Shown here one piece after another: positions 8,375-28,064 of a stretch of DNA of 32,000 bases. Both the position numbers and the translations under genes were made by a program. Numbering within the stretch: the stretch's first letter is position 1; the number at the start of each line of letters is the position of its first letter. Source of the DNA: Microcystis aeruginosa NIES-2549. GTDB taxonomy: Bacteria; Cyanobacteriota; Cyanobacteriia; Cyanobacteriales; Microcystaceae. The notes beneath the pieces were generated by a model. That model was not told the origin of the DNA and searched no databases. It was given only the letters and a program-made list of their open reading frames with translations. The stretch lies in contig NZ_CP011304.1 of NCBI RefSeq assembly GCF_000981785.2, forward strand, positions 3,150,001 to 3,182,000, read 5' to 3'.

Positions 8375-10024
8375 TCACCAGCTGACTTTGCCTTGCAGCT
8401 TGTTGATTTTTCCCTGACCGATTCCCGATACTCGATCCAAATCTTCTAGGGAAGTAAAGGGTTTTTGTTGCCGGGCTGCGATAATTTTTTCAGCTAATTT
8501 GCCACTGATACCGGGTAAACTATCTAATTCTTCTTTGGTGGCGGTGTTTAAATTAATTAAGCGCTCGCTTTTAATTGTTACAGATTGGGGGCAGTTTTTT
8601 CTATCCTGTTCGATCCGATTTTTAATAGTTTCCGGCAGTCCTAATTTAGCGGTACGGTAAAGATATTGAAATTCTCGATCGAAATGAGCGGCAACGGTGG
8701 GATTATCGATAATAACTAAAGCTTCATCGTTTTTATGGTTAGCGGCTCTTGACCAATTATGAGAACCAGTAATCACAATTTTATCATCGATTAAACCGAA
8801 TTTATGGTGTAATTTATCTCCCGGGGCTAGAGCGGGAACTCCTAGGGTATTAATTGGGTTTTGCCAAGGCTGATTATCTGGTTCATAACGACATTTATTA
8901 CTGAGAGCAACTCCTAATAAATCTAATCCTTCGCTATAGTATCGGAAGGCAAAACTAGGATCAATTAAAGCCTTAATTTCTATCCCTTTTTGATGTCGTT
9001 GGGCGAGAATATTAGCTAAAGGCTGTTCCGTAAAGACAAACAGGGCTAAATCCACGGATTTTTTAGCTTTATTTAAAGTTTCACCGATCAAACCATTGCT
9101 AGTAATTGCCCAGGGATAAGTGGTAGAATCGGGGGAAAATTTTACCGTCAGAATACTATTACCGATAAGGATTGTTTGCGGTTTTCTCTGGGGTTTATCT
9201 AAGCCAAATTTATGCTGATCTTCCCTTCCCCACATCAGATTAAATTCTCTTTGAAAAACTCTAGCTAGTGGGGGATTATTAATGACTAATAAGTGATTGG
9301 CATTCCCGACAGTTTGGGGATTAGAAAAGTCTCCATGAATATCACTTAAGGTATAGTTAGCTGAACTGATTAAAGTAGTGTAATTATCAATAACCATGAA
9401 TTTATGGTGCATTAAACCGCTACCTTTTGAGCGATCAGTGCTATCATCAATTAGGGGAATACCAGCTTTTTTGAGGATAGTAATTGCATCTCTTTGGGCG
9501 ATTTCCTCTGGAGTTAATTTACCATCGCGATTTATGTCAACTAAGTCAAAAAGATTTTGATAACGTTCCTGTTCTCGATCACTTAATTGTTCTTGGTTTT
9601 TGGCTAAACTATTAATAGGTTTATTGTAAATATTTTCGAGGATAACCCTAACTTTAATTCCCTGTTGCTGACGAGTAGCTAAAGCTTGAGCGATGGCGGG
9701 TAAACGTAACTCTTGCACTGCTAGATCGATCGAAATTTTTGCCGAGTTGATATGATCAATAATAACCTGTTCTAAATTATCCCCTGGGCGATTAATTTGG
9801 CGATAGGGATCGGTATAATTTGAATTTCGGGCTTGATTATGATTAAAATAGACTTGAATATATTGATCTTGGGGCAAGGGTTGCGGACGATTTTGGATAA
9901 CATTCAGAGAATGACAACCACCCAAGAGAAAAACTGTTCCTAATAAAAATCCTAACTGTACCATGGGCAGAATTTTTTTTAATCTCCATTTATCTATTGC
10001 CATTTTTGCCCGCATAATTATCAT
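8375..10024 (-). CDS. Phospholipase D-family (two HKD motifs) nuclease-like lipoprotein with an EF-hand loop and a C-terminal ComEA-type helix-hairpin-helix DNA-binding domain
   Basis: HKD motifs are HHKFMVIDN and HHKFGLIDDKIVITGSHNWS. There is a canonical EF-hand loop, DINRDGKLTPEE. The C-terminus INLNTATKEELDSLPGISGKLAEKIIAARQQKPFTSLEDLDRVSGIGQGKINKL is ComEA-like. The N-terminus ...LGFLLGTVFLLGGCHS looks like a lipoprotein signal. The exact start is uncertain, since several in-frame Met codons exist. Confidence 0.75.
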   Translation of the reverse strand: MIIMRAKMAIDKWRLKKILPMVQLGFLLGTVFLLGGCHSLNVIQNRPQPLPQDQYIQVYFNHNQARNSNYTDPYRQINRPGDNLEQVIIDHINSAKISIDLAVQELRLPAIAQALATRQQQGIKVRVILENIYNKPINSLAKNQEQLSDREQERYQNLFDLVDINRDGKLTPEEIAQRDAITILKKAGIPLIDDSTDRSKGSGLMHHKFMVIDNYTTLISSANYTLSDIHGDFSNPQTVGNANHLLVINNPPLARVFQREFNLMWGREDQHKFGLDKPQRKPQTILIGNSILTVKFSPDSTTYPWAITSNGLIGETLNKAKKSVDLALFVFTEQPLANILAQRHQKGIEIKALIDPSFAFRYYSEGLDLLGVALSNKCRYEPDNQPWQNPINTLGVPALAPGDKLHHKFGLIDDKIVITGSHNWSRAANHKNDEALVIIDNPTVAAHFDREFQYLYRTAKLGLPETIKNRIEQDRKNCPQSVTIKSERLINLNTATKEELDSLPGISGKLAEKIIAARQQKPFTSLEDLDRVSGIGQGKINKLQGKVSW

Positions 10025-10170
10025 TACCCTAGGATTCAGGAGACAGGAGGTAATTTTTACCTAAGCAGGTTCTCGGAAATCGGTATGTACTAAATTGATT
10101 ATAATCAATCCTGATTCTAGATTCAAGACTAGGGCCTTTTCCTTGATTGCTTAAATTACTGAGCAAAGAT

Positions 10171-19195: not shown

Positions 19196-20140
19196 GTGAC
19201 AAATTTTTCGATTAATGTTGGGATCATTGGCGCGGGTTTAGCCGGGTTAACCTGCGCTCGTCAGTTGTGCGATCGAGGTTATACTGTTAAGCTATTTGAT
19301 AAGTCTAGAGGCATTGGTGGTCGTTTAGCCACGCGACGGGTTAATCGAGCTAATCAAGAGATGGCTGTGGATCATGGCTTGCCTTTTTTGACTATTCAGG
19401 GCGAAAAAACGGCGGCTTTAATTGATAATCTCCTGAGAGAGAATATAGTTACTTCTTGGTTTGATTCTAGCTATGTTGCTCCTTCTGGCATCAATAGCGT
19501 GGCGAAATTTTTAGCTAAAGGTTTAGAAATTGAACGAGATTTTCTGGTTACTCGTCTGGAAAATCATCAAGAAAAATGGTTTTTAAACAATAACGGTCAA
19601 ATTCGGGGAGAGTTTTCGGTGATTGTCCTGGCTATTCCCGCCCCGCAAGCGGCGTTATTGTTAGAAAACTCTCCCATAACTACTATGCCAGAATTGCGAT
19701 CGATCGTTTACGATCCCTGTTTAACGGTAATGGCGGGTTATGGCGATTCTTTACCCGCAGTTGCTCCCTCCACCGATATCGCTTGGTTAGGACTTGATAG
19801 CAGTAAACGGCAATCATCCCCTGATTATGTCTTTGTTGTGCATAGTAGTGCCGATTTTGCGGTTAAATATCTCGATAGCGAGGATTTGGAAGCAGTTAAG
19901 CTAGATTTGCTCTCTCGAGCTTCTTTGCCTCTCCCGGATTGGTCACAGATTCACCGTTGGCGTTATGCTTTAGTCCGTCAGGGTTTAGCTGTACCCTGTT
20001 TAAGTGTTAATAGTCCTTTACCTCTAGTTGCCTGTGGTGATTGGTGTCAAGGAGGAGATTTATCGAGAAATTCTTCCCTAGAAACGGCCTTAACTTCTGG
20101 GATAGCGGCGGCTAATCAAGTTGAGCAGCTACTCTCTTAA
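19196..20140 (+). CDS. NAD(P)/FAD-dependent oxidoreductase (renalase-like / amine-oxidase fold)
   Basis: The N-terminal Rossmann motif is VGIIGAGLAGLTCA...LFDKSRGIGGR. It uses a GTG start and is 314 aa. Confidence 0.7.
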   Translation: MTNFSINVGIIGAGLAGLTCARQLCDRGYTVKLFDKSRGIGGRLATRRVNRANQEMAVDHGLPFLTIQGEKTAALIDNLLRENIVTSWFDSSYVAPSGINSVAKFLAKGLEIERDFLVTRLENHQEKWFLNNNGQIRGEFSVIVLAIPAPQAALLLENSPITTMPELRSIVYDPCLTVMAGYGDSLPAVAPSTDIAWLGLDSSKRQSSPDYVFVVHSSADFAVKYLDSEDLEAVKLDLLSRASLPLPDWSQIHRWRYALVRQGLAVPCLSVNSPLPLVACGDWCQGGDLSRNSSLETALTSGIAAANQVEQLLS

Positions 20141-20238
20141 GAATCTAGAGACAGGTTTAAATTCTTAGGTTAAGCTTGGGTTAACAAAAGGTTAAATATA
20201 TAATAATGTAGATATCCTATACTGGGGGGTTGGTCACA

Positions 20239-20493
20239 ATGGAAAAATTCAATTCTAAAGATAACTTTCTCTACCCTAAAACCAGCTACAGGGGTTTATT
20301 CACGCCACAAAATCTGGTTTTTAACGCTAACTTGCAGGAATTCGCCCTGAGAGTCTCTTTTATCGCCGGTTTACACAGTGGAGGAAAACTTACCTCTACG
20401 GAAGCTTACGAGAAAATTAACCAGCTTTGGCAAGAGTTGAATACCAGTCGAAAATTCCTACTAGCTAATCATTTTGAGGATCACGGAGATTGA
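20239..20493 (+). CDS. Small conserved hypothetical protein
   Basis: This is the ORF-track frame 20230..20493. I prefer the ATG at 20239 (MEKFNSKDNFLYPKTSYRGLFTPQNLVFNANLQEF...). I assigned no family. Confidence 0.45.
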   Translation: MEKFNSKDNFLYPKTSYRGLFTPQNLVFNANLQEFALRVSFIAGLHSGGKLTSTEAYEKINQLWQELNTSRKFLLANHFEDHGD

Positions 20494-20872: not shown

Positions 20873-22936
20873 ATGCCCCAAGATACTACTAAACAAGCAA
20901 CGGAAAACCCTGTTGTGTCCGACCAGTCCTCCAAGAATCCCTTTTCACTATTTGGTCAATTTTGGGAAAGCCTAAAAATTGTGGCTCAACCCTATTGGTA
21001 TCCAACGGAGTTAAATGGACGTGCCTTTGGAGATGTACTCATTTCTTGGGGGATGTCAGCTTTGGTTTTTTTAAGTATCTTGGCAACGGTGGGGGTAGAA
21101 GCTTTTAGTAGTTACTGGAATCGTTATGTACTCGATATTATTATTGAAGATAGAGACCTTTCTAAATATCTAAATACGTTGTGGTTATCCAGTTTTTTGA
21201 TTATCGTGGCAACGGGTTTATTTGCTTTTTCTCAATTTATTCGTCGCAAAGTAGCCTTAGATTGGTATCAATGGTTAACGAAACAAACCGTTAAAAAGTA
21301 TCTCAATTATCGCGCTTATTATAATATTGATTTTACCTCGGACTTAAAAAATCCCGATCAAAGACTATCTCAAGAAATTGAACCAATTACGACCATGACC
21401 CTAAGGTTGTTAATTACCTTCGTGGAAAAAGGGTTACAAATGATTACTTTTGCGATTATTCTTTGGACAATTTCTCGGCAAATTGCGGTTTATCTGATCA
21501 TTTATACGATCACAGGAAATTTAATAGCAATTTATCTAACTCAAGAATTAAACAAAATTAATCAATCTGAACTTAATAATAAAGCTGATTATAATTATGC
21601 TTTAACCCATGTGCGTAACCACGCCGAATCCATTGCTTTTTTTCAGGGAGAAGAGCAGGAAGAAAAAATCATTGAAGGCCGTTTTGAACGGGTTATTCAA
21701 AGCTCGGAAAAACTGATCAATTGGGAACGGTTTAATAATCTTTTTAATCGAGGTTATCAGTCAGCGATTAGTGTATTTTCAATGTTTATTTTGACCCCGA
21801 TGTTTATTAAAAACGAAATCGATTATGGGGAAATTAGTCAAGCGAGTTTATGCTGTTTCCTTTTTTCTAATGCCTTGGGACAATTAATTACTGAATGGGG
21901 AACATCGGGTAAAGTTTCAAGTTATATTGAACGGTTAGCTACCTTGACAGATGCCTTAAAAGTTGCCAGTGAAGAGCCGAAAAACTTAAGTCGTATTATC
22001 ACCCTGGAAGATAATCGTCTAGCTTTTGAAAATTTTACCCTACAAACTCCCGATTATGAAAAGGTAATTGTGGAGAATTTATCGGTTTCTGTTCCTTTGG
22101 GAGAAAGCCTACTGATTATTGGCCCCAGTGGTCGAGGAAAAAGTTCCTTGTTACGAGCAATCGCCGGTTTATGGAAAGCAGGTAGCGGCCGTTTAGTGCG
22201 TCCTCCTTTAGCTAAAATGTTATTTTTACCCCAACGTCCTTATATTATCCTTGGCACTTTACGCCAGCAATTACTTTATCCCCATACCAATGAGCAGGTG
22301 AGCGATGAAGAATTAGAAAACATCTTAAAAAAAGTCAACCTGCAACATTTATTAACTGACAAAAATACCTTAGATAAACAAGTCAATTGGGAACAAATTT
22401 TATCTCTGGGAGAACAGCAAAGACTAGCTTTTGCTCGACTATTAATCACTAAACCCACTTTTACTATCTTAGATGAAGCAACCAGCGCTTTAGATTTGGC
22501 CAATGAAGCCAGCTTATATCAGCAATTACAGGAAAGTGAAACCACTTTTATTAGTGTTGGTCATCGGGAAAGTTTATTTAATTATCATCGATGGGTCTTA
22601 GAGTTAACAGAAAATTCCCATTGGCAGCTGTCAACTGTAGAAGATTATCAGCGCAAAAAAGTTAATAACCTAGTGATGACATCAAAAAAATCAGAAAATT
22701 TCTCGGCGGTAAAAATAGAGACTTTGTCTGAGGTTAAAACTGAGCATGATGCGGAAATTGCCGGAGTTTCTGAAATAGCCGAAGGTTTGTCCCATCAACA
22801 AATGCAGTCTCTAACTGATTATTCTTTAAGTAACGTCCGGAGTCGTGCCAGTTTAGGTAAAATTATTACTGCCAAAGATGGTTTTAATTATCGTTACGAT
22901 AAAGACCCAAAAACCTTAAAATGGGTGAGAATATAG
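20873..22936 (+). CDS. mdnE: ABC transporter, fused permease and ATPase (SbmA/BacA-ABCD-like TMD); microviridin cluster transporter MdnE-like
   Basis: Walker A is GPSGRGKSS, the signature is LSLGEQQRLAFARL and Walker B is FTILDEATSALD. The N-terminal half is membrane-spanning. The gene is adjacent to the GNAT and converges on the ATP-grasp genes. A tail of about 90 aa follows the NBD. Confidence 0.7.
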   Translation: MPQDTTKQATENPVVSDQSSKNPFSLFGQFWESLKIVAQPYWYPTELNGRAFGDVLISWGMSALVFLSILATVGVEAFSSYWNRYVLDIIIEDRDLSKYLNTLWLSSFLIIVATGLFAFSQFIRRKVALDWYQWLTKQTVKKYLNYRAYYNIDFTSDLKNPDQRLSQEIEPITTMTLRLLITFVEKGLQMITFAIILWTISRQIAVYLIIYTITGNLIAIYLTQELNKINQSELNNKADYNYALTHVRNHAESIAFFQGEEQEEKIIEGRFERVIQSSEKLINWERFNNLFNRGYQSAISVFSMFILTPMFIKNEIDYGEISQASLCCFLFSNALGQLITEWGTSGKVSSYIERLATLTDALKVASEEPKNLSRIITLEDNRLAFENFTLQTPDYEKVIVENLSVSVPLGESLLIIGPSGRGKSSLLRAIAGLWKAGSGRLVRPPLAKMLFLPQRPYIILGTLRQQLLYPHTNEQVSDEELENILKKVNLQHLLTDKNTLDKQVNWEQILSLGEQQRLAFARLLITKPTFTILDEATSALDLANEASLYQQLQESETTFISVGHRESLFNYHRWVLELTENSHWQLSTVEDYQRKKVNNLVMTSKKSENFSAVKIETLSEVKTEHDAEIAGVSEIAEGLSHQQMQSLTDYSLSNVRSRASLGKIITAKDGFNYRYDKDPKTLKWVRI

Positions 22937-23043
22937 CTAATGGGGTGACAAACAGATTGAAAGTGAGACAGAGTATTCAGACTTCCCCCTCTCAGGAGAA
23001 CTAGAGAATGAGGTTTTTGCTGGGTAAGTTGATTAACAAGCTA

Positions 23044-23072
23044 CTAACTGATAACTGATAACTGATAACTGG
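23044..23072. repeat. (CTGATAA)n heptamer array
   Basis: Direct reading gives ctaactgataactgataactgataactgg, just upstream of the GNAT gene. Confidence 0.85.
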
Positions 23073-23089
23073 TATAGGAGTTTTATCAA

Positions 23090-23623
23090 ATGAAAGCACT
23101 GGAAAAACTGGTGACGGAACGATTATATTTAGTCCCCTTCAAGCTTGAACTTCTCAAGGCCGCAATTATAGGTATCGATGAATTAGCAACAATTTTGGGG
23201 GTAAAAGTTGCAGCTGACTGGGCCGAACAAGAGTTGATTCAAGCTTTCCCTGATATTGCCAATATTTTGCTGCAATTCCCCTTACAAAATGAGTGGGGGT
23301 GGGGGAGTTTAATTATTCATCAAGCAGAAAATACCCTTATTGGTCATGTGATGATCAAAATTATTCCTGATGTCACAGGTTTACCCACAGATGCTGTAGA
23401 AATTGGCTATCAAGTAGCGCCGTTATATCGACGACAAGGCTACGCATCCGAGGCGACAAAAGCAATGATGGACTGGACACTTTCTCAACCTGGTATGCAA
23501 ACAGTGACCGCCGGCTGCGCTCCCGATAATATAGCTTCAAAGCGAGTTTTAGAAAAAATAGGCATGGATCTGATAGAAGCACGAGAGAAAGTCTTGGTCT
23601 GGAAATTAAGTAGGGTTTGCTGA
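23090..23623 (+). CDS. mdnD: GNAT family N-acetyltransferase (RimJ/RimL-like); MdnD-like
   Basis: The acetyl-CoA-binding segment is ...IGYQVAPLYRRQGYASEATKAMMDW.... It is 177 aa. The context matches the known N-acetylation of microviridins. Confidence 0.75.
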   Translation: MKALEKLVTERLYLVPFKLELLKAAIIGIDELATILGVKVAADWAEQELIQAFPDIANILLQFPLQNEWGWGSLIIHQAENTLIGHVMIKIIPDVTGLPTDAVEIGYQVAPLYRRQGYASEATKAMMDWTLSQPGMQTVTAGCAPDNIASKRVLEKIGMDLIEAREKVLVWKLSRVC

Positions 23624-23809
23624 AAAAGTTTGTTGGTGGGGTTAGGAGTCAGTTATCAGTTATCAGTTATCAGTTATCAGTTCACTGAGAAAACTCCCCA
23701 CTTCCCCACTTCCCACACCCTACACCCTCTTTCAAGTCAGGAGTCGGGGGGAATCGGGAGTCAGAGCCTCGTCGATGCGATAAAATACTCTGGCTCTGTC
23801 TTTGCCAGT
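23611..23809. mobile_element. MITE-related repeat element filling the mdnD-mdnC spacer
   Basis: It starts with the same terminus, TAGGGTTTGCTGAAAAAGTTT, as the element at 3087. It contains (CAGTTAT)4 at 23650-23677 (a degenerate fifth unit, cagttca, extends it to 23684) followed by CCCCACTT/CCCACAC/CCTACAC units. The far terminus is degenerate. Confidence 0.45.
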
Positions 23810-24784
23810 TTATGAGTTGACAAGGATTTCAGCGATTGCCTGGGAGATAGGAAAATAAGGAGGATAAAGTTCTAGCCAGAAAAACTCGCCAACGGGATTA
23901 ATTTCTAAAAAGATATAACGTTCATCTGGTGTGACAATCATATCAATTGCACCATAATTAAGACCGAAATATTTCATTAATTCTAGTAGTTGCTTTTCAA
24001 TAGTTTTCGGTAAATCGTAGGGTTGCCATTGTTGATGGAGCGCTCTTCCCTCTTTTCGCCAATCGTAGATAGCGCCGTCTAATTGTTGGGAATTAATCGC
24101 CGCCGTAAATATTTGTTCACCGACGATAGTGATGCGTAATTCCAAAGCTTTAGGAATGTTTTCCTGAAAAGTCATGGGACAAAATTGCAAACCTTCCAAA
24201 TTATCTAGGTCTTCCTTAGTAACAGGACTTGTAAAAACAACCATTTCCTCTTGCTTGTCTCCATAAATAGCAAATTGAGAAAGCATTTTAGTCACAATTC
24301 CTGTCGCTTCAAACTCCTGAGCAAATTGCTTGACAGCTTCAGGATTATTAGAAGTTAAAGTCCCAGGAATTAATAAACCTAATTGTTGCGCTACTTGTAA
24401 CTGCAATTGTTTATGATTGGCATGATCTACCTTAGCAATTGGGTCAAGATGAAAACCAGATAAACTAGCAATCATTCCTCGAATACTTAACCGACATTCC
24501 TTAAGAGAAGCTTCGCGAAATTGACTATCCATCCCATCGGGTAATTTTAGTCCGTATCTCATGCGTCGATACCAGACAGAAGAAACTTCTTTTAGCTCTA
24601 ATTTTTGTTCTCCATCGGTAATAATTCCGCCTTTTTTATCGTCTGAGTAAAGATCAACTTTCACCTCTGTAGGGAAGCGATCAGTATCAAAACGGAAGGC
24701 TTTTTTCCCCATCGTTTCTATGGCTTTGATTACCAGAGGAATACTTTCATTATCGTGGCTAAAAGTAACAATTAAAACGGTCAT
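23810..24784 (-). CDS. mdnC: Microviridin ATP-grasp ligase MdnC (omega-ester / lactone-forming)
   Basis: It has the RimK-type ATP-grasp fold. From the ATG at 24784 (AAGGAAA RBS upstream) the protein starts MTVLIVTFSHDNESIPLVIKAIE..., which matches my recollection of the MdnC N-terminus. The ORF-track start at 24841 is a TTG that overlaps mdnB. Confidence 0.9.
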   Translation of the reverse strand: MTVLIVTFSHDNESIPLVIKAIETMGKKAFRFDTDRFPTEVKVDLYSDDKKGGIITDGEQKLELKEVSSVWYRRMRYGLKLPDGMDSQFREASLKECRLSIRGMIASLSGFHLDPIAKVDHANHKQLQLQVAQQLGLLIPGTLTSNNPEAVKQFAQEFEATGIVTKMLSQFAIYGDKQEEMVVFTSPVTKEDLDNLEGLQFCPMTFQENIPKALELRITIVGEQIFTAAINSQQLDGAIYDWRKEGRALHQQWQPYDLPKTIEKQLLELMKYFGLNYGAIDMIVTPDERYIFLEINPVGEFFWLELYPPYFPISQAIAEILVNS

Positions 24785-24837
24785 AGATTTCCTTGAAAAC
24801 TTAGGATTAACAATTTTTTGAGCGCCAGCTTTGCCGA

Positions 24838-25818
24838 TCAACCGAAGACTAAAAAATCAGCGATTGCATTAGAAATAGGTAAATCTAAATCCCGTTCTAA
24901 CATTCCCCACTCACCACCCGGATTAACTTCTAAAAAAACGTATTCTCCCCCAGGAGTTAAGATAAAATCAAACGCCCCAAAATTCAACCCTAAATTAGCC
25001 ATAAAAATCTGAAGTTGCTGCAATAGTGAATCGGGTAAAGTATGATGTTGCCAAGCACCAGGATCAATACCAGGTCTTCGCCAATCTACGGCAGAATTAT
25101 TATACTGAGAAGATTCTAAAGCTCCCACAAATGTCTGTCCATTAACCACGACAACTCTCAATTCTAATTGTTTGGGAATTTCCGCTTGAAAAACCATGGG
25201 ACAATAGCGTAAAGATTCCGCTTCCTCAAGGTCTTCTGCTTTCACCCTACTGGTATAAAGAAAAAATTCCGGCGATTCCATGCTGTGGGCGATCGCAGTT
25301 AACAATTTACTCACCATTCTTCCCTGAACCTGGGAAAAAAACTCCCGGGCAGCATCAGGATTATTGGTAACTAAGGTAGGGGGAATAATTAAGCCAACTT
25401 CTGAGGCCAAACGAAGTTGTAATAACTTATTTTTAGCCTTCTCAATTTGCGCTAAATTATCTAACCAACGCGCTGACCTTAAACTATCCCAAAAACCAGC
25501 CAAAGTCGTCTGGGATTCTCGCACACAAACCTCCCGAAACTGAGGATCTAAATCTCCTGTTAGTTCAGGTTGCCAAATACGTCTTGTCCAAACAGATTGC
25601 ACCTGTTGACTATCAATAGATTGATGGTTATAGGTTAATTGATAAAAACTTTTTTTACCATTAAATTGGGCTGCTAATTGAACCTCTAAGGGAAATTTAT
25701 CGGTATCTAAGCGAAAAGGTGTGACTCCTTTTTTTTCTATCGCCTCAGCCACGCGGTCAATCGTGAAAAAATCGCCGCTATGGGTCAACAATAAAACAAC
25801 TTTAGGCGATTCTTTCAT
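24838..25818 (-). CDS. mdnB: Microviridin ATP-grasp ligase MdnB (omega-amide / lactam-forming)
   Basis: This second ATP-grasp paralogue (326 aa, MKESPKVVLLLTHSGDFFTIDRVAEAIEKKG...) lies immediately downstream of the precursor gene, as in mdnA-B-C. Confidence 0.88.
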   Translation of the reverse strand: MKESPKVVLLLTHSGDFFTIDRVAEAIEKKGVTPFRLDTDKFPLEVQLAAQFNGKKSFYQLTYNHQSIDSQQVQSVWTRRIWQPELTGDLDPQFREVCVRESQTTLAGFWDSLRSARWLDNLAQIEKAKNKLLQLRLASEVGLIIPPTLVTNNPDAAREFFSQVQGRMVSKLLTAIAHSMESPEFFLYTSRVKAEDLEEAESLRYCPMVFQAEIPKQLELRVVVVNGQTFVGALESSQYNNSAVDWRRPGIDPGAWQHHTLPDSLLQQLQIFMANLGLNFGAFDFILTPGGEYVFLEVNPGGEWGMLERDLDLPISNAIADFLVFG

Positions 25819-25945
25819 ATCAGTTGCAAGTCCTTACATTTTAACCCATCTTAAGGCTTTTGGGTCGGTCTTTATTGATCCTAATCTCAAGAAAATGCTG
25901 CAAAAAGTCTTGCTTTTGCTTGACTTATTGCAGTATTGGTTTTTT

Positions 25946-26084
25946 CTTGAGTAATTACTAAAGTTACTTTACAGCACTTCTCAGGATCTCAACGTGCAGT
26001 TTTTTTGGCTGCGAGCCTTGTTAGTGGAGCCTTTAGCTTTTTGTCTGTACGGTGTAATCAAGAAAAGTGCTGTAATTACTCAAG
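25946..26084 (-). promoter_or_regulatory. Long-range inverted repeat (potential RNA stem) in the mdnA-mdnB spacer
   Basis: cttgagtaattac...agcactt (25946-25979) is the reverse complement of aagtgct-gtaattactcaag (26065-26084). That gives 13 + 7 bp with a 14-nt bulge and encloses about 85 nt. It begins about 10 nt after the mdnA stop on the transcript. Confidence 0.4.
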
Positions 26085-26094
26085 TGATCTGAGT

Positions 26095-26247
26095 TTAATA
26101 CTCTTCCCAGTCAGAAGGGTATTTCAAGGTGGTCCCGAAGGTAGGCTCAGGGGAAGGAGACTTGATGGAAGATTCCTCTTTGCTTACGGACAAGAAACGA
26201 GCAAAGAAAGGAAGTGCTTTACCTTGTTGATCGTTGGGATATGCCAT
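26095..26247 (-). CDS. mdnA: Microviridin precursor peptide MdnA (50 aa), core FGTTLKYPSDWEEY
   Basis: It is below the size cut-off of the ORF track. My hand translation is MAYPNDQQGKALPFFARFLSVSKEESSIKSPSPEPTFGTTLKYPSDWEEY*. GAGG lies 7 nt upstream of the ATG. The PFFARFL leader motif and the KYPSDWEE core motif are both present. Confidence 0.95.
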   Translation of the reverse strand: MAYPNDQQGKALPFFARFLSVSKEESSIKSPSPEPTFGTTLKYPSDWEEY

Positions 26248-26729
26248 AGTTATTCCTCTGGTAATTTCGAGTGAATAGGTTTAATCACTCAGACAAAACT
26301 AACAACCTGTACTAACCCTTGAAAGCTTTGCTGTGCATGGCTTTCAGAATTGGGATTGTGCAAATAATTTGCCTTTGTTTGGGTGATGGGAAACATAATA
26401 AGCACTAATCTGGCCAATGTCAAGCACTTAAGAACAATTTCTGCTAAATCCGACATTCAGCATATCTTCATATACTTGTATATGTTTTTACATTCCCCAA
26501 GATGTTTTAACGAAAAACCTTGATTATAGAAACTACTATTGAGAACATTGTCAATAATTGATTTTTTCTGAGAAAAAAATTTACAATTCTTCACCTTGAT
26601 CAAAATCCATGATTGTAGCTATAATCCTTACTGGACAAGGATTGTAAGCAATATATTGGTAAAAATTATTAATTGAATGTTAAGAAGTGCGGAAAGTGGG
26701 ATTTAATACTCCACACTTAAAACTCAAAT

Positions 26730-26774
26730 CTGATAACTGATCACTGATAACTGATCACTGATAACTGATAGCTG
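26730..26774. repeat. (CTGATAA / CTGATCA)n heptamer array
   Basis: Direct reading gives ctgataa ctgatca ctgataa ctgatca ctgataa ctgatag ctg. It lies between the rodA stop and the region upstream of mdnA. Confidence 0.9.
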
Positions 26775-26783
26775 TACAACTAC

Positions 26784-28064
26784 TTAGTACAAACGCTTAC
26801 GGGGGCGATAATTAGCCACGGATTCCACTAAACCCAAGGCGATAAAATTGGTTAATAAAGATGAACGTCCATAACTTAACCAGGGTAAAGGAATCCCTGT
26901 AATCGGGGCTAATCCCACGGTCATGCTAATATTAAGAATTGCCTGAAAAGCGATCATCGAGAGAACACCGATCGCTATTAAAGAACCGAAGTTTTCTTTA
27001 GCAGTATTAGCAATAACTAACAAACGCCAACAGATTAACCAGAAAGCTATTAAAACTAGAATACTGCCGACAAAACCGAGTTCTTCCCCGACTACAGAGA
27101 AGATAAAATCGGTGTGTTGTTCGGGAATAAAATTTAATTGGGTTTGGGTGCCTTGGTGTAATCCCCTTCCCAATAATTCTCCCGATCCGATGGCAATGCG
27201 GGATTGAATTAATTGATAACCTCCCCCCAAAGGATTCTTTTCTGGGTCAAGAAATAGGGTTAAACGATCTTTTTGATATTCTTTTAATAAACCCCAAAAA
27301 ACCTCGCCTAATTTACCCACTGCCAAATTAGTTGCCACCACGAGGAAAGTAGATAAAAAACGGTAGGGAAGGGTAAACCAAGCAAGCACAGCGATGATAA
27401 TTGCTAAAACAATCCAAGCAGGAAAAAGTAAATTAAACAGAAAAACCGATGCGAGGGGAGATAAGAGGATAATCATCCAAGGTAGTTTCGCATTAGCCCA
27501 GTAAATCATGCCTAGGGTAATTGCACCAAAGACTAATCCTGTCCCCAAGTCCGGCTGCGCCATAATTAACACCCAGGGGATGGCAGTGACGGCAAAAACA
27601 CGAGCGATCGCAAAAAGATTATCGGCGGGACGATGATGTAGGAGGGCTGCTAGGGTGATAATTAAACCTACCTTGGCAAATTCCGACGGTTGCACGTTAA
27701 AACTGCCGATATTAATCCAACTTTGCGCCCCATTCGCCGTCACCCCTAGGACAATTACCGCAATTAGGGAGAGATTGGTAAGAAGATAGGTTAACCAGTG
27801 CCATTTGAGCAGACTTTCGTAACGACAACGGGCCAGAAATAAAGCGATCGCCACTCCCACGGATCCGAATAACCAGTGTTGCCACCAGTCGAGAGCGGTG
27901 GTGTTCCTTTCGGCACTACGAATCATTAAACCACCGAAAACGGTTAAACCCGTCACCAAAACGAACAAAAGCCAATCAATTTGGGCTAGATCCCGGAAAA
28001 TAAAGCTAAACTGCTCACCAAAACCGCTTAGTTTCCTACTAATAAGGGACTGTCTTCTCACCAT
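26784..28064 (-). CDS. rodA: SEDS-family peptidoglycan glycosyltransferase RodA
   Basis: DRLTLFLDPEKNPLGGGYQLIQSRIAIGSGELLGRGLHQGTQTQLNFIPEQHTDFIFSVVGEELGFVG aligns closely with the E. coli RodA segment ...[46 protein letters not shown]. I prefer the ATG at 28064 to the TTG at 28076. Confidence 0.85.
   Translation of the reverse strand: MVRRQSLISRKLSGFGEQFSFIFRDLAQIDWLLFVLVTGLTVFGGLMIRSAERNTTALDWWQHWLFGSVGVAIALFLARCRYESLLKWHWLTYLLTNLSLIAVIVLGVTANGAQSWINIGSFNVQPSEFAKVGLIITLAALLHHRPADNLFAIARVFAVTAIPWVLIMAQPDLGTGLVFGAITLGMIYWANAKLPWMIILLSPLASVFLFNLLFPAWIVLAIIIAVLAWFTLPYRFLSTFLVVATNLAVGKLGEVFWGLLKEYQKDRLTLFLDPEKNPLGGGYQLIQSRIAIGSGELLGRGLHQGTQTQLNFIPEQHTDFIFSVVGEELGFVGSILVLIAFWLICWRLLVIANTAKENFGSLIAIGVLSMIAFQAILNISMTVGLAPITGIPLPWLSYGRSSLLTNFIALGLVESVANYRPRKRLY

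Follow-up and report, generated by a model that had tools for sequence, protein, structure and literature searches.

Microviridin B is a tricyclic depsipeptide of the composition Ac-FGTTLKYPSDWEEY, published as a three-letter sequence, whose side chains are linked by two esters, Thr-Asp and Ser-Glu(I), and one amide, Lys-Glu(II) (PMC7823629). Its enzymology and its inhibition of elastase have been described (PMC7823629, PMC11672978): elastase is inhibited at ~25 nM, and the tricyclic precursor with the leader still attached is a nanomolar inhibitor too (PMC11672978). The leader of such precursors carries a helix, PFFARFL, that is recognised by the ATP-grasp ligases, and a stabilising role in the biosynthetic complex has been proposed for the ABC protein MdnE (PMC7823629). 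Outside Microcystis, the closest described systems are the mvdA-E cluster of Planktothrix agardhii, with the precursor MvdE and the product microviridin K, and the marinostatin system. Both share the PFFARFL leader and the TxKxPSD core with the locus analysed here, and both have paired ATP-grasp ligases, a GNAT acetyltransferase and an ABC transporter in common with it (PMC7823629). The P. agardhii system belongs to another genus and differs in its core and in its gene names, with MdnB as the counterpart of MvdC and MdnC as that of MvdD; marinostatin, for its part, is bicyclic (PMC7823629).

The reading frame described here lies on the minus strand of the window, by which we mean the whole 32-kb stretch of DNA that was analysed. 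This short frame is almost certainly mdnA, the precursor gene of the tricyclic depsipeptide microviridin B, located within a complete mdnA-E cluster of Microcystis. The elements of the precursor gene are as follows.

26095..26247, minus strand: mdnA, microviridin precursor gene, 50 aa, TAA stop included (translation, PF12559 and NF033738, exact database match)
26255..26258, minus strand: GAGG, Shine-Dalgarno-like, with 7 nt between the motif and the mdnA ATG at 26247 (read from the sequence)
26140..26247, minus strand: leader peptide, residues 1-36 (residues 1-33 identical to MdnA, chain P of PDB 5IG9)
26191..26211, minus strand: PFFARFL recognition helix, residues 13-19 (role from PMC7823629)
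26098..26139, minus strand: core peptide FGTTLKYPSDWEEY, residues 37-50 (matches the published composition of microviridin B, PMC7823629)

Translation of the minus strand from ATG to TAA yields MAYPNDQQGKALPFFARFLSVSKEESSIKSPSPEPTFGTTLKYPSDWEEY, the same 50-residue peptide that the original prediction had read from this interval, and the GAGG that it placed 7 nt before the start codon was found at 26258..26255. The gene is absent from the first list of open reading frames because of the size cut-off only, as had been supposed; with a threshold of 40 aa, the mechanical list includes it. The proposed identity of the peptide as MdnA was borne out by profile searches and exact look-ups alike. MdnA scores 34.5 bits against Pfam PF12559 (Inhibitor_I10; curated cut-off 21, E 2.4e-8) and 40.1 bits against NCBIfam NF033738 (microviridin/marinostatin family tricyclic proteinase inhibitor; curated cut-off 26, E 4.9e-10), so that the match to the family is far above chance. 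An exact-sequence look-up finds the identical 50-aa protein in UniProt as B2G3C3 (B2G3C3_MICAE), named "Microviridin", and the same protein occurs in several NCBI Microcystis genomes under the name 'microviridin/marinostatin family tricyclic proteinase inhibitor'. Contigs with the exact protein numbered 17 in the look-up of clusters, and 23 were read in the look-up of encoding DNA. The sole match in the PDB is chain P of 5IG9 ('Microviridin'), a precursor co-crystallised with the ligase MdnC. Public annotation pipelines call mdnA through the NF033738 model. Open reading frame tracks limited by size routinely miss the precursor genes of RiPPs, which can be picked up with standard family models, NF033738 among them.

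The interval is also covered by a longer frame on the opposite strand, 26005..26274 (+), which did enter the first track. The original prediction had called it spurious; it exists, with 89 aa, but starts with TTG and has no Pfam match. Were this frame the real gene, the minus-strand peptide would have to be a product of chance, and yet that peptide has two curated family matches, exact identity to database proteins and a match in the PDB, and the minus-strand gene is called by public annotation in every related locus. We regard this reading as vanishingly improbable, and the opposite-strand frame was rejected as a gene for want of a family match.

The assignment of the minus-strand frame to mdnA extends to its parts. 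The PFFARFL motif, which had been put forward as the leader helix for ATP-grasp ligases, agrees with the published description of that helix (PMC7823629), and the leader around it equals the crystallised 5IG9 chain over residues 1-33. The expected microviridin core signature is present: T-L-K-Y-P-S-D-W-E-E comprises the TxKxPSD motif, followed by correctly spaced acidic acceptors (Asp, Glu, Glu). By comparison with the published sequence (PMC7823629), the last 14 residues of MdnA are the peptide chain of microviridin B, as the original prediction had proposed. The literal string FGTTLKYPSDWEEY returned no match in a full-text literature search; the sequence is given in three-letter form in PMC7823629. 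The mass computed for Ac-FGTTLKYPSDWEEY minus three H2O is 1722.757 Da (monoisotopic) or 1723.86 Da (average), against a published value of 1723.8. The predicted topology, in core numbering Thr4-Asp10 and Ser9-Glu12 esters, a Lys6-Glu13 amide and an acetylated Phe1, coincides with the published one (PMC7823629), and by analogy the cross-links would be Thr40-Asp46, Ser45-Glu48 and Lys42-Glu49 in the numbering of the precursor. We found no sequence feature that speaks against a microviridin B precursor. At the level of DNA, a 41-nt string from the leader occurs at six loci in species-representative genomes, all of them from Microcystis, with conserved leaders and varying cores, and an exact scan of a one-genome-per-species collection with the 45-nt core DNA gave no match.

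Genes for the two types of ligase lie directly downstream of mdnA on the same strand, MvdC-type and MvdD-type, and two further genes, convergent with mdnC, complete the cluster.

24838..25818, minus strand: mdnB, MvdC-family ATP-grasp ligase, 326 aa, Lys-Glu lactam (TIGR04185, PDB 5IG8)
23810..24784, minus strand: mdnC, MvdD-family ATP-grasp ligase, 324 aa, two lactones (TIGR04184, PDB 5IG9 chain A)
23090..23623, plus strand: mdnD, GNAT N-acetyltransferase, 177 aa (PF13302, PF00583; role from PMC7823629)
20873..22936, plus strand: mdnE, ABC transporter, 687 aa, transmembrane and ATPase domains (PF06472, PF00664, PF00005)

Both ligases are recovered by equivalog models well above their cut-offs and align with crystallised proteins over their entire lengths. 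MdnB scores 532.7 bits against TIGR04185 (cut-off 425) and 724 bits against PDB 5IG8 over residues 1-326; MdnC scores 556.9 bits against TIGR04184 (cut-off 475) and 710.6 bits against chain A of PDB 5IG9 over residues 1-324. The mechanical list begins mdnC with a TTG at 24841, while other genomes call the 324-aa protein with an ATG at 24784. To place the cluster among its relatives we used nine comparison loci of Microcystis (L001-L009), retrieved by exact matches to MdnA and MdnB. Each of them contains these five genes, unchanged in size and orientation, and in all nine the cluster is flanked by rodA on one side and by a DUF7219 gene and an amine-oxidase-like gene on the other. The window thus carries a complete mdnA-E cluster with all five genes intact, in the position that it normally occupies on the chromosome. 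Across the whole 32-kb window, a scan found no Rfam family and no tRNA.

Several observations concern the surroundings of the cluster. The DUF7219 gene, at 20230..20493 (+), is an 87-aa frame here and has 84 aa elsewhere; it sits directly beside the mdnE side in every related locus. The FAD/NAD-binding amine-oxidase-like gene, at 19196..20140 (+), likewise adjoins the mdnE side in every related locus. A second, divergent precursor gene, e.g. MNYPNTEQSKAIPFFARFLSADQDEAPTPDSPPDSEPAPVWTWKWPSDWEDS, is present between mdnC and mdnD in the Microcystis clusters L005, L008, L010 and L015 (L005:10754-10912 and L008:3007-3165), accompanied in the first two of these by a 159-aa frame of no known family. 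The window is without this insertion. In L003 (GCA_002897275.1, BEIU01000002), positions 9513-10063 encode three extra 66-aa MvdD pre-ATP-grasp fragments ahead of the full mdnC, with a period of ~175 bp; the repeats would be explained by tandem duplication of the 5' end of mdnC, or else by an error of assembly.

The literature on identical or near-identical proteins suggests how the product would be made and what it would do. The leader, 36 residues long, would dock on the ATP-grasp ligases with its PFFARFL helix, which would activate them. MdnC would phosphorylate the side-chain carboxylates and close the larger Thr40-Asp46 lactone first and the Ser45-Glu48 lactone second, and MdnB would then close the Lys42-Glu49 lactam. 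A protease encoded outside the cluster would cut off the leader before Phe37, the GNAT protein MdnD would acetylate the new N-terminus, and the ABC protein MdnE would support the biosynthetic complex, the export of the peptide, or both. The expected product is Ac-FGTTLKYPSDWEEY minus three H2O, of ~1723.9 Da, presumably a nanomolar inhibitor of elastase-type serine proteases. The chemistry, the order of its steps and the activity are all carried over from those described proteins, and production of microviridin B by this strain would follow by the same analogy.

No gene for a leader protease is located within the cluster, and a Pfam search of MdnE found no C39 peptidase domain. The first of these points would fit a cluster that is silent or non-productive, in which a genuine mdnA gives rise to no microviridin B or only to partly processed forms, for instance bicyclic microviridin C; the latter, which lacks the Ser-Glu ester, accompanies microviridin B in the original producer (PMC7823629). 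All five genes, on the other hand, are full-length and nearly identical to homologues that are functional, or were crystallised or heterologously expressed, and the conservation of the locus in many strains argues for maintained function. We consider a silent cluster improbable and retain the reading of an intact, presumably productive microviridin B locus. In practical terms the strain is a carrier of an intact cluster for a known elastase inhibitor, microviridin B, which is of little consequence beyond annotation.

The non-coding DNA on either side of mdnA contains two further elements.

25819..26094, minus strand: mdnA-mdnB spacer, 276 nt, predicted strongly structured RNA with two long hairpins (fold energy, inverted repeats)
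26395..26423, minus strand: candidate promoter, TTGACA-17 nt-TATTAT, 11/12 matches, ~150 nt upstream of mdnA (consensus scan)

The predicted fold energy of the spacer is -77.2 kcal/mol, with z = -6.08 relative to shuffled sequences. It contains a 31-nt imperfect inverted repeat (25969-25999/26045-26075), a 13-nt perfect one (25946-25958/26072-26084) and a second hairpin. We searched the 32-kb window for further copies of the inverted repeat and found none. The spacer is kept in all nine related loci at an identity of at least 94.5%; a covariation test found 0 compensatory pairs among six distinct sequences which, at 94.5% identity or more, are too similar for covariation to show. A consensus scan found no intrinsic terminator after mdnA. 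The predicted structure may serve to tune the ratio of precursor to enzyme, and one conceivable role of the spacer is that of a dedicated element regulating in cis, whether as attenuator, as processing site or as stabiliser of the mRNA, which would favour a high ratio of precursor to ligase. We know of no comparable RNA element described for microviridin clusters. On the upstream side, promoter-like sites are no more numerous than in shuffled sequence, and the site listed above accordingly counts as a candidate. A 55-aa frame at 26289..26456 (-), just upstream of mdnA, overlaps the candidate promoter and has no family match; it is probably no gene. The same frame is annotated as a gene in two public records (L004, L006).

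The tract containing mdnA appears to differ in history from the rest of the cluster. The nearest genome retrieved, that of strain NIES-2481 (CP012375, L009), shows no difference from the window over 22000-26019, an interval that takes in mdnB, mdnC and mdnD completely and mdnE in part; the whole of mdnE is 100% identical as well. In the adjoining interval 26020..26778, the two genomes differ at 19 sites, among them the core codon at 26133/26132. Another locus, L006 (GCA_009811815.1), matches the window base for base over 25725..26882 and shows many differences outside. This mosaic pattern, relative to NIES-2481 on the one hand and L006 on the other, is the reason for considering recombination: it suggests that a ~1-kb tract with mdnA and its upstream region (about 26020..26880) was exchanged by homologous recombination. 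If true, the swap of this tract would make the precursor allele an exchangeable cassette. Taken jointly, a cis-regulatory spacer and a swapped ~1-kb mdnA cassette form a possible but rather doubtful combination.

Among known microviridin loci, that of NIES-2481 differs from the window in the precursor and in the DNA upstream of it. Its mdnB, mdnC, mdnD and mdnE have 100% DNA identity with those of the window and the leader of its MdnA is identical, but its core is FGGTLKYPSDWEEY, with Gly in place of Thr at residue 3 (GG instead of the AC of the window at 26133/26132), and the intergenic region upstream of its mdnA is only 95% identical. For the chemotyping of strains, a single codon thus divides the present allele from the FGGT variant of NIES-2481. 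The precursor in PDB 5IG9, that of microviridin J in complex with MdnC, has the same leader over residues 1-33 and differs in the N-terminal half of the core and in its last residue, Trp against Tyr here. Microviridin J inhibits trypsin, not elastase (PMC7823629). The ligases of the window align over their full lengths with MdnC of 5IG9 and MdnB of 5IG8, at 711 and 724 bits.

The closest counterpart is MdnA of M. aeruginosa as recorded in B2G3C3, whose 50-aa protein is identical, with nothing different at the protein level, and which belongs to the same mdnA-E cluster. We take B2G3C3 to be the MdnA of strain NIES-298, the source of which is reportedly Ziemert et al. 2008. The mdnA gene of NIES-298 encodes the variant B/C (PMC8310014). 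Among the loci encoding the B2G3C3 protein, the DNA of mdnA is identical in eight, while the flanking genes differ by 1-5% between strains. These eight loci, L001-L008 (e.g. L001:8001-8153), have mdnA DNA that is 100% identical to that of the window, with flanking genes that differ from it by 1-5%, and mdnA shows fewer synonymous differences in them than its neighbourhood would predict. The mdnA gene described here is a known, already annotated gene, and publications cover its protein, the enzymes, the structures and also the product.
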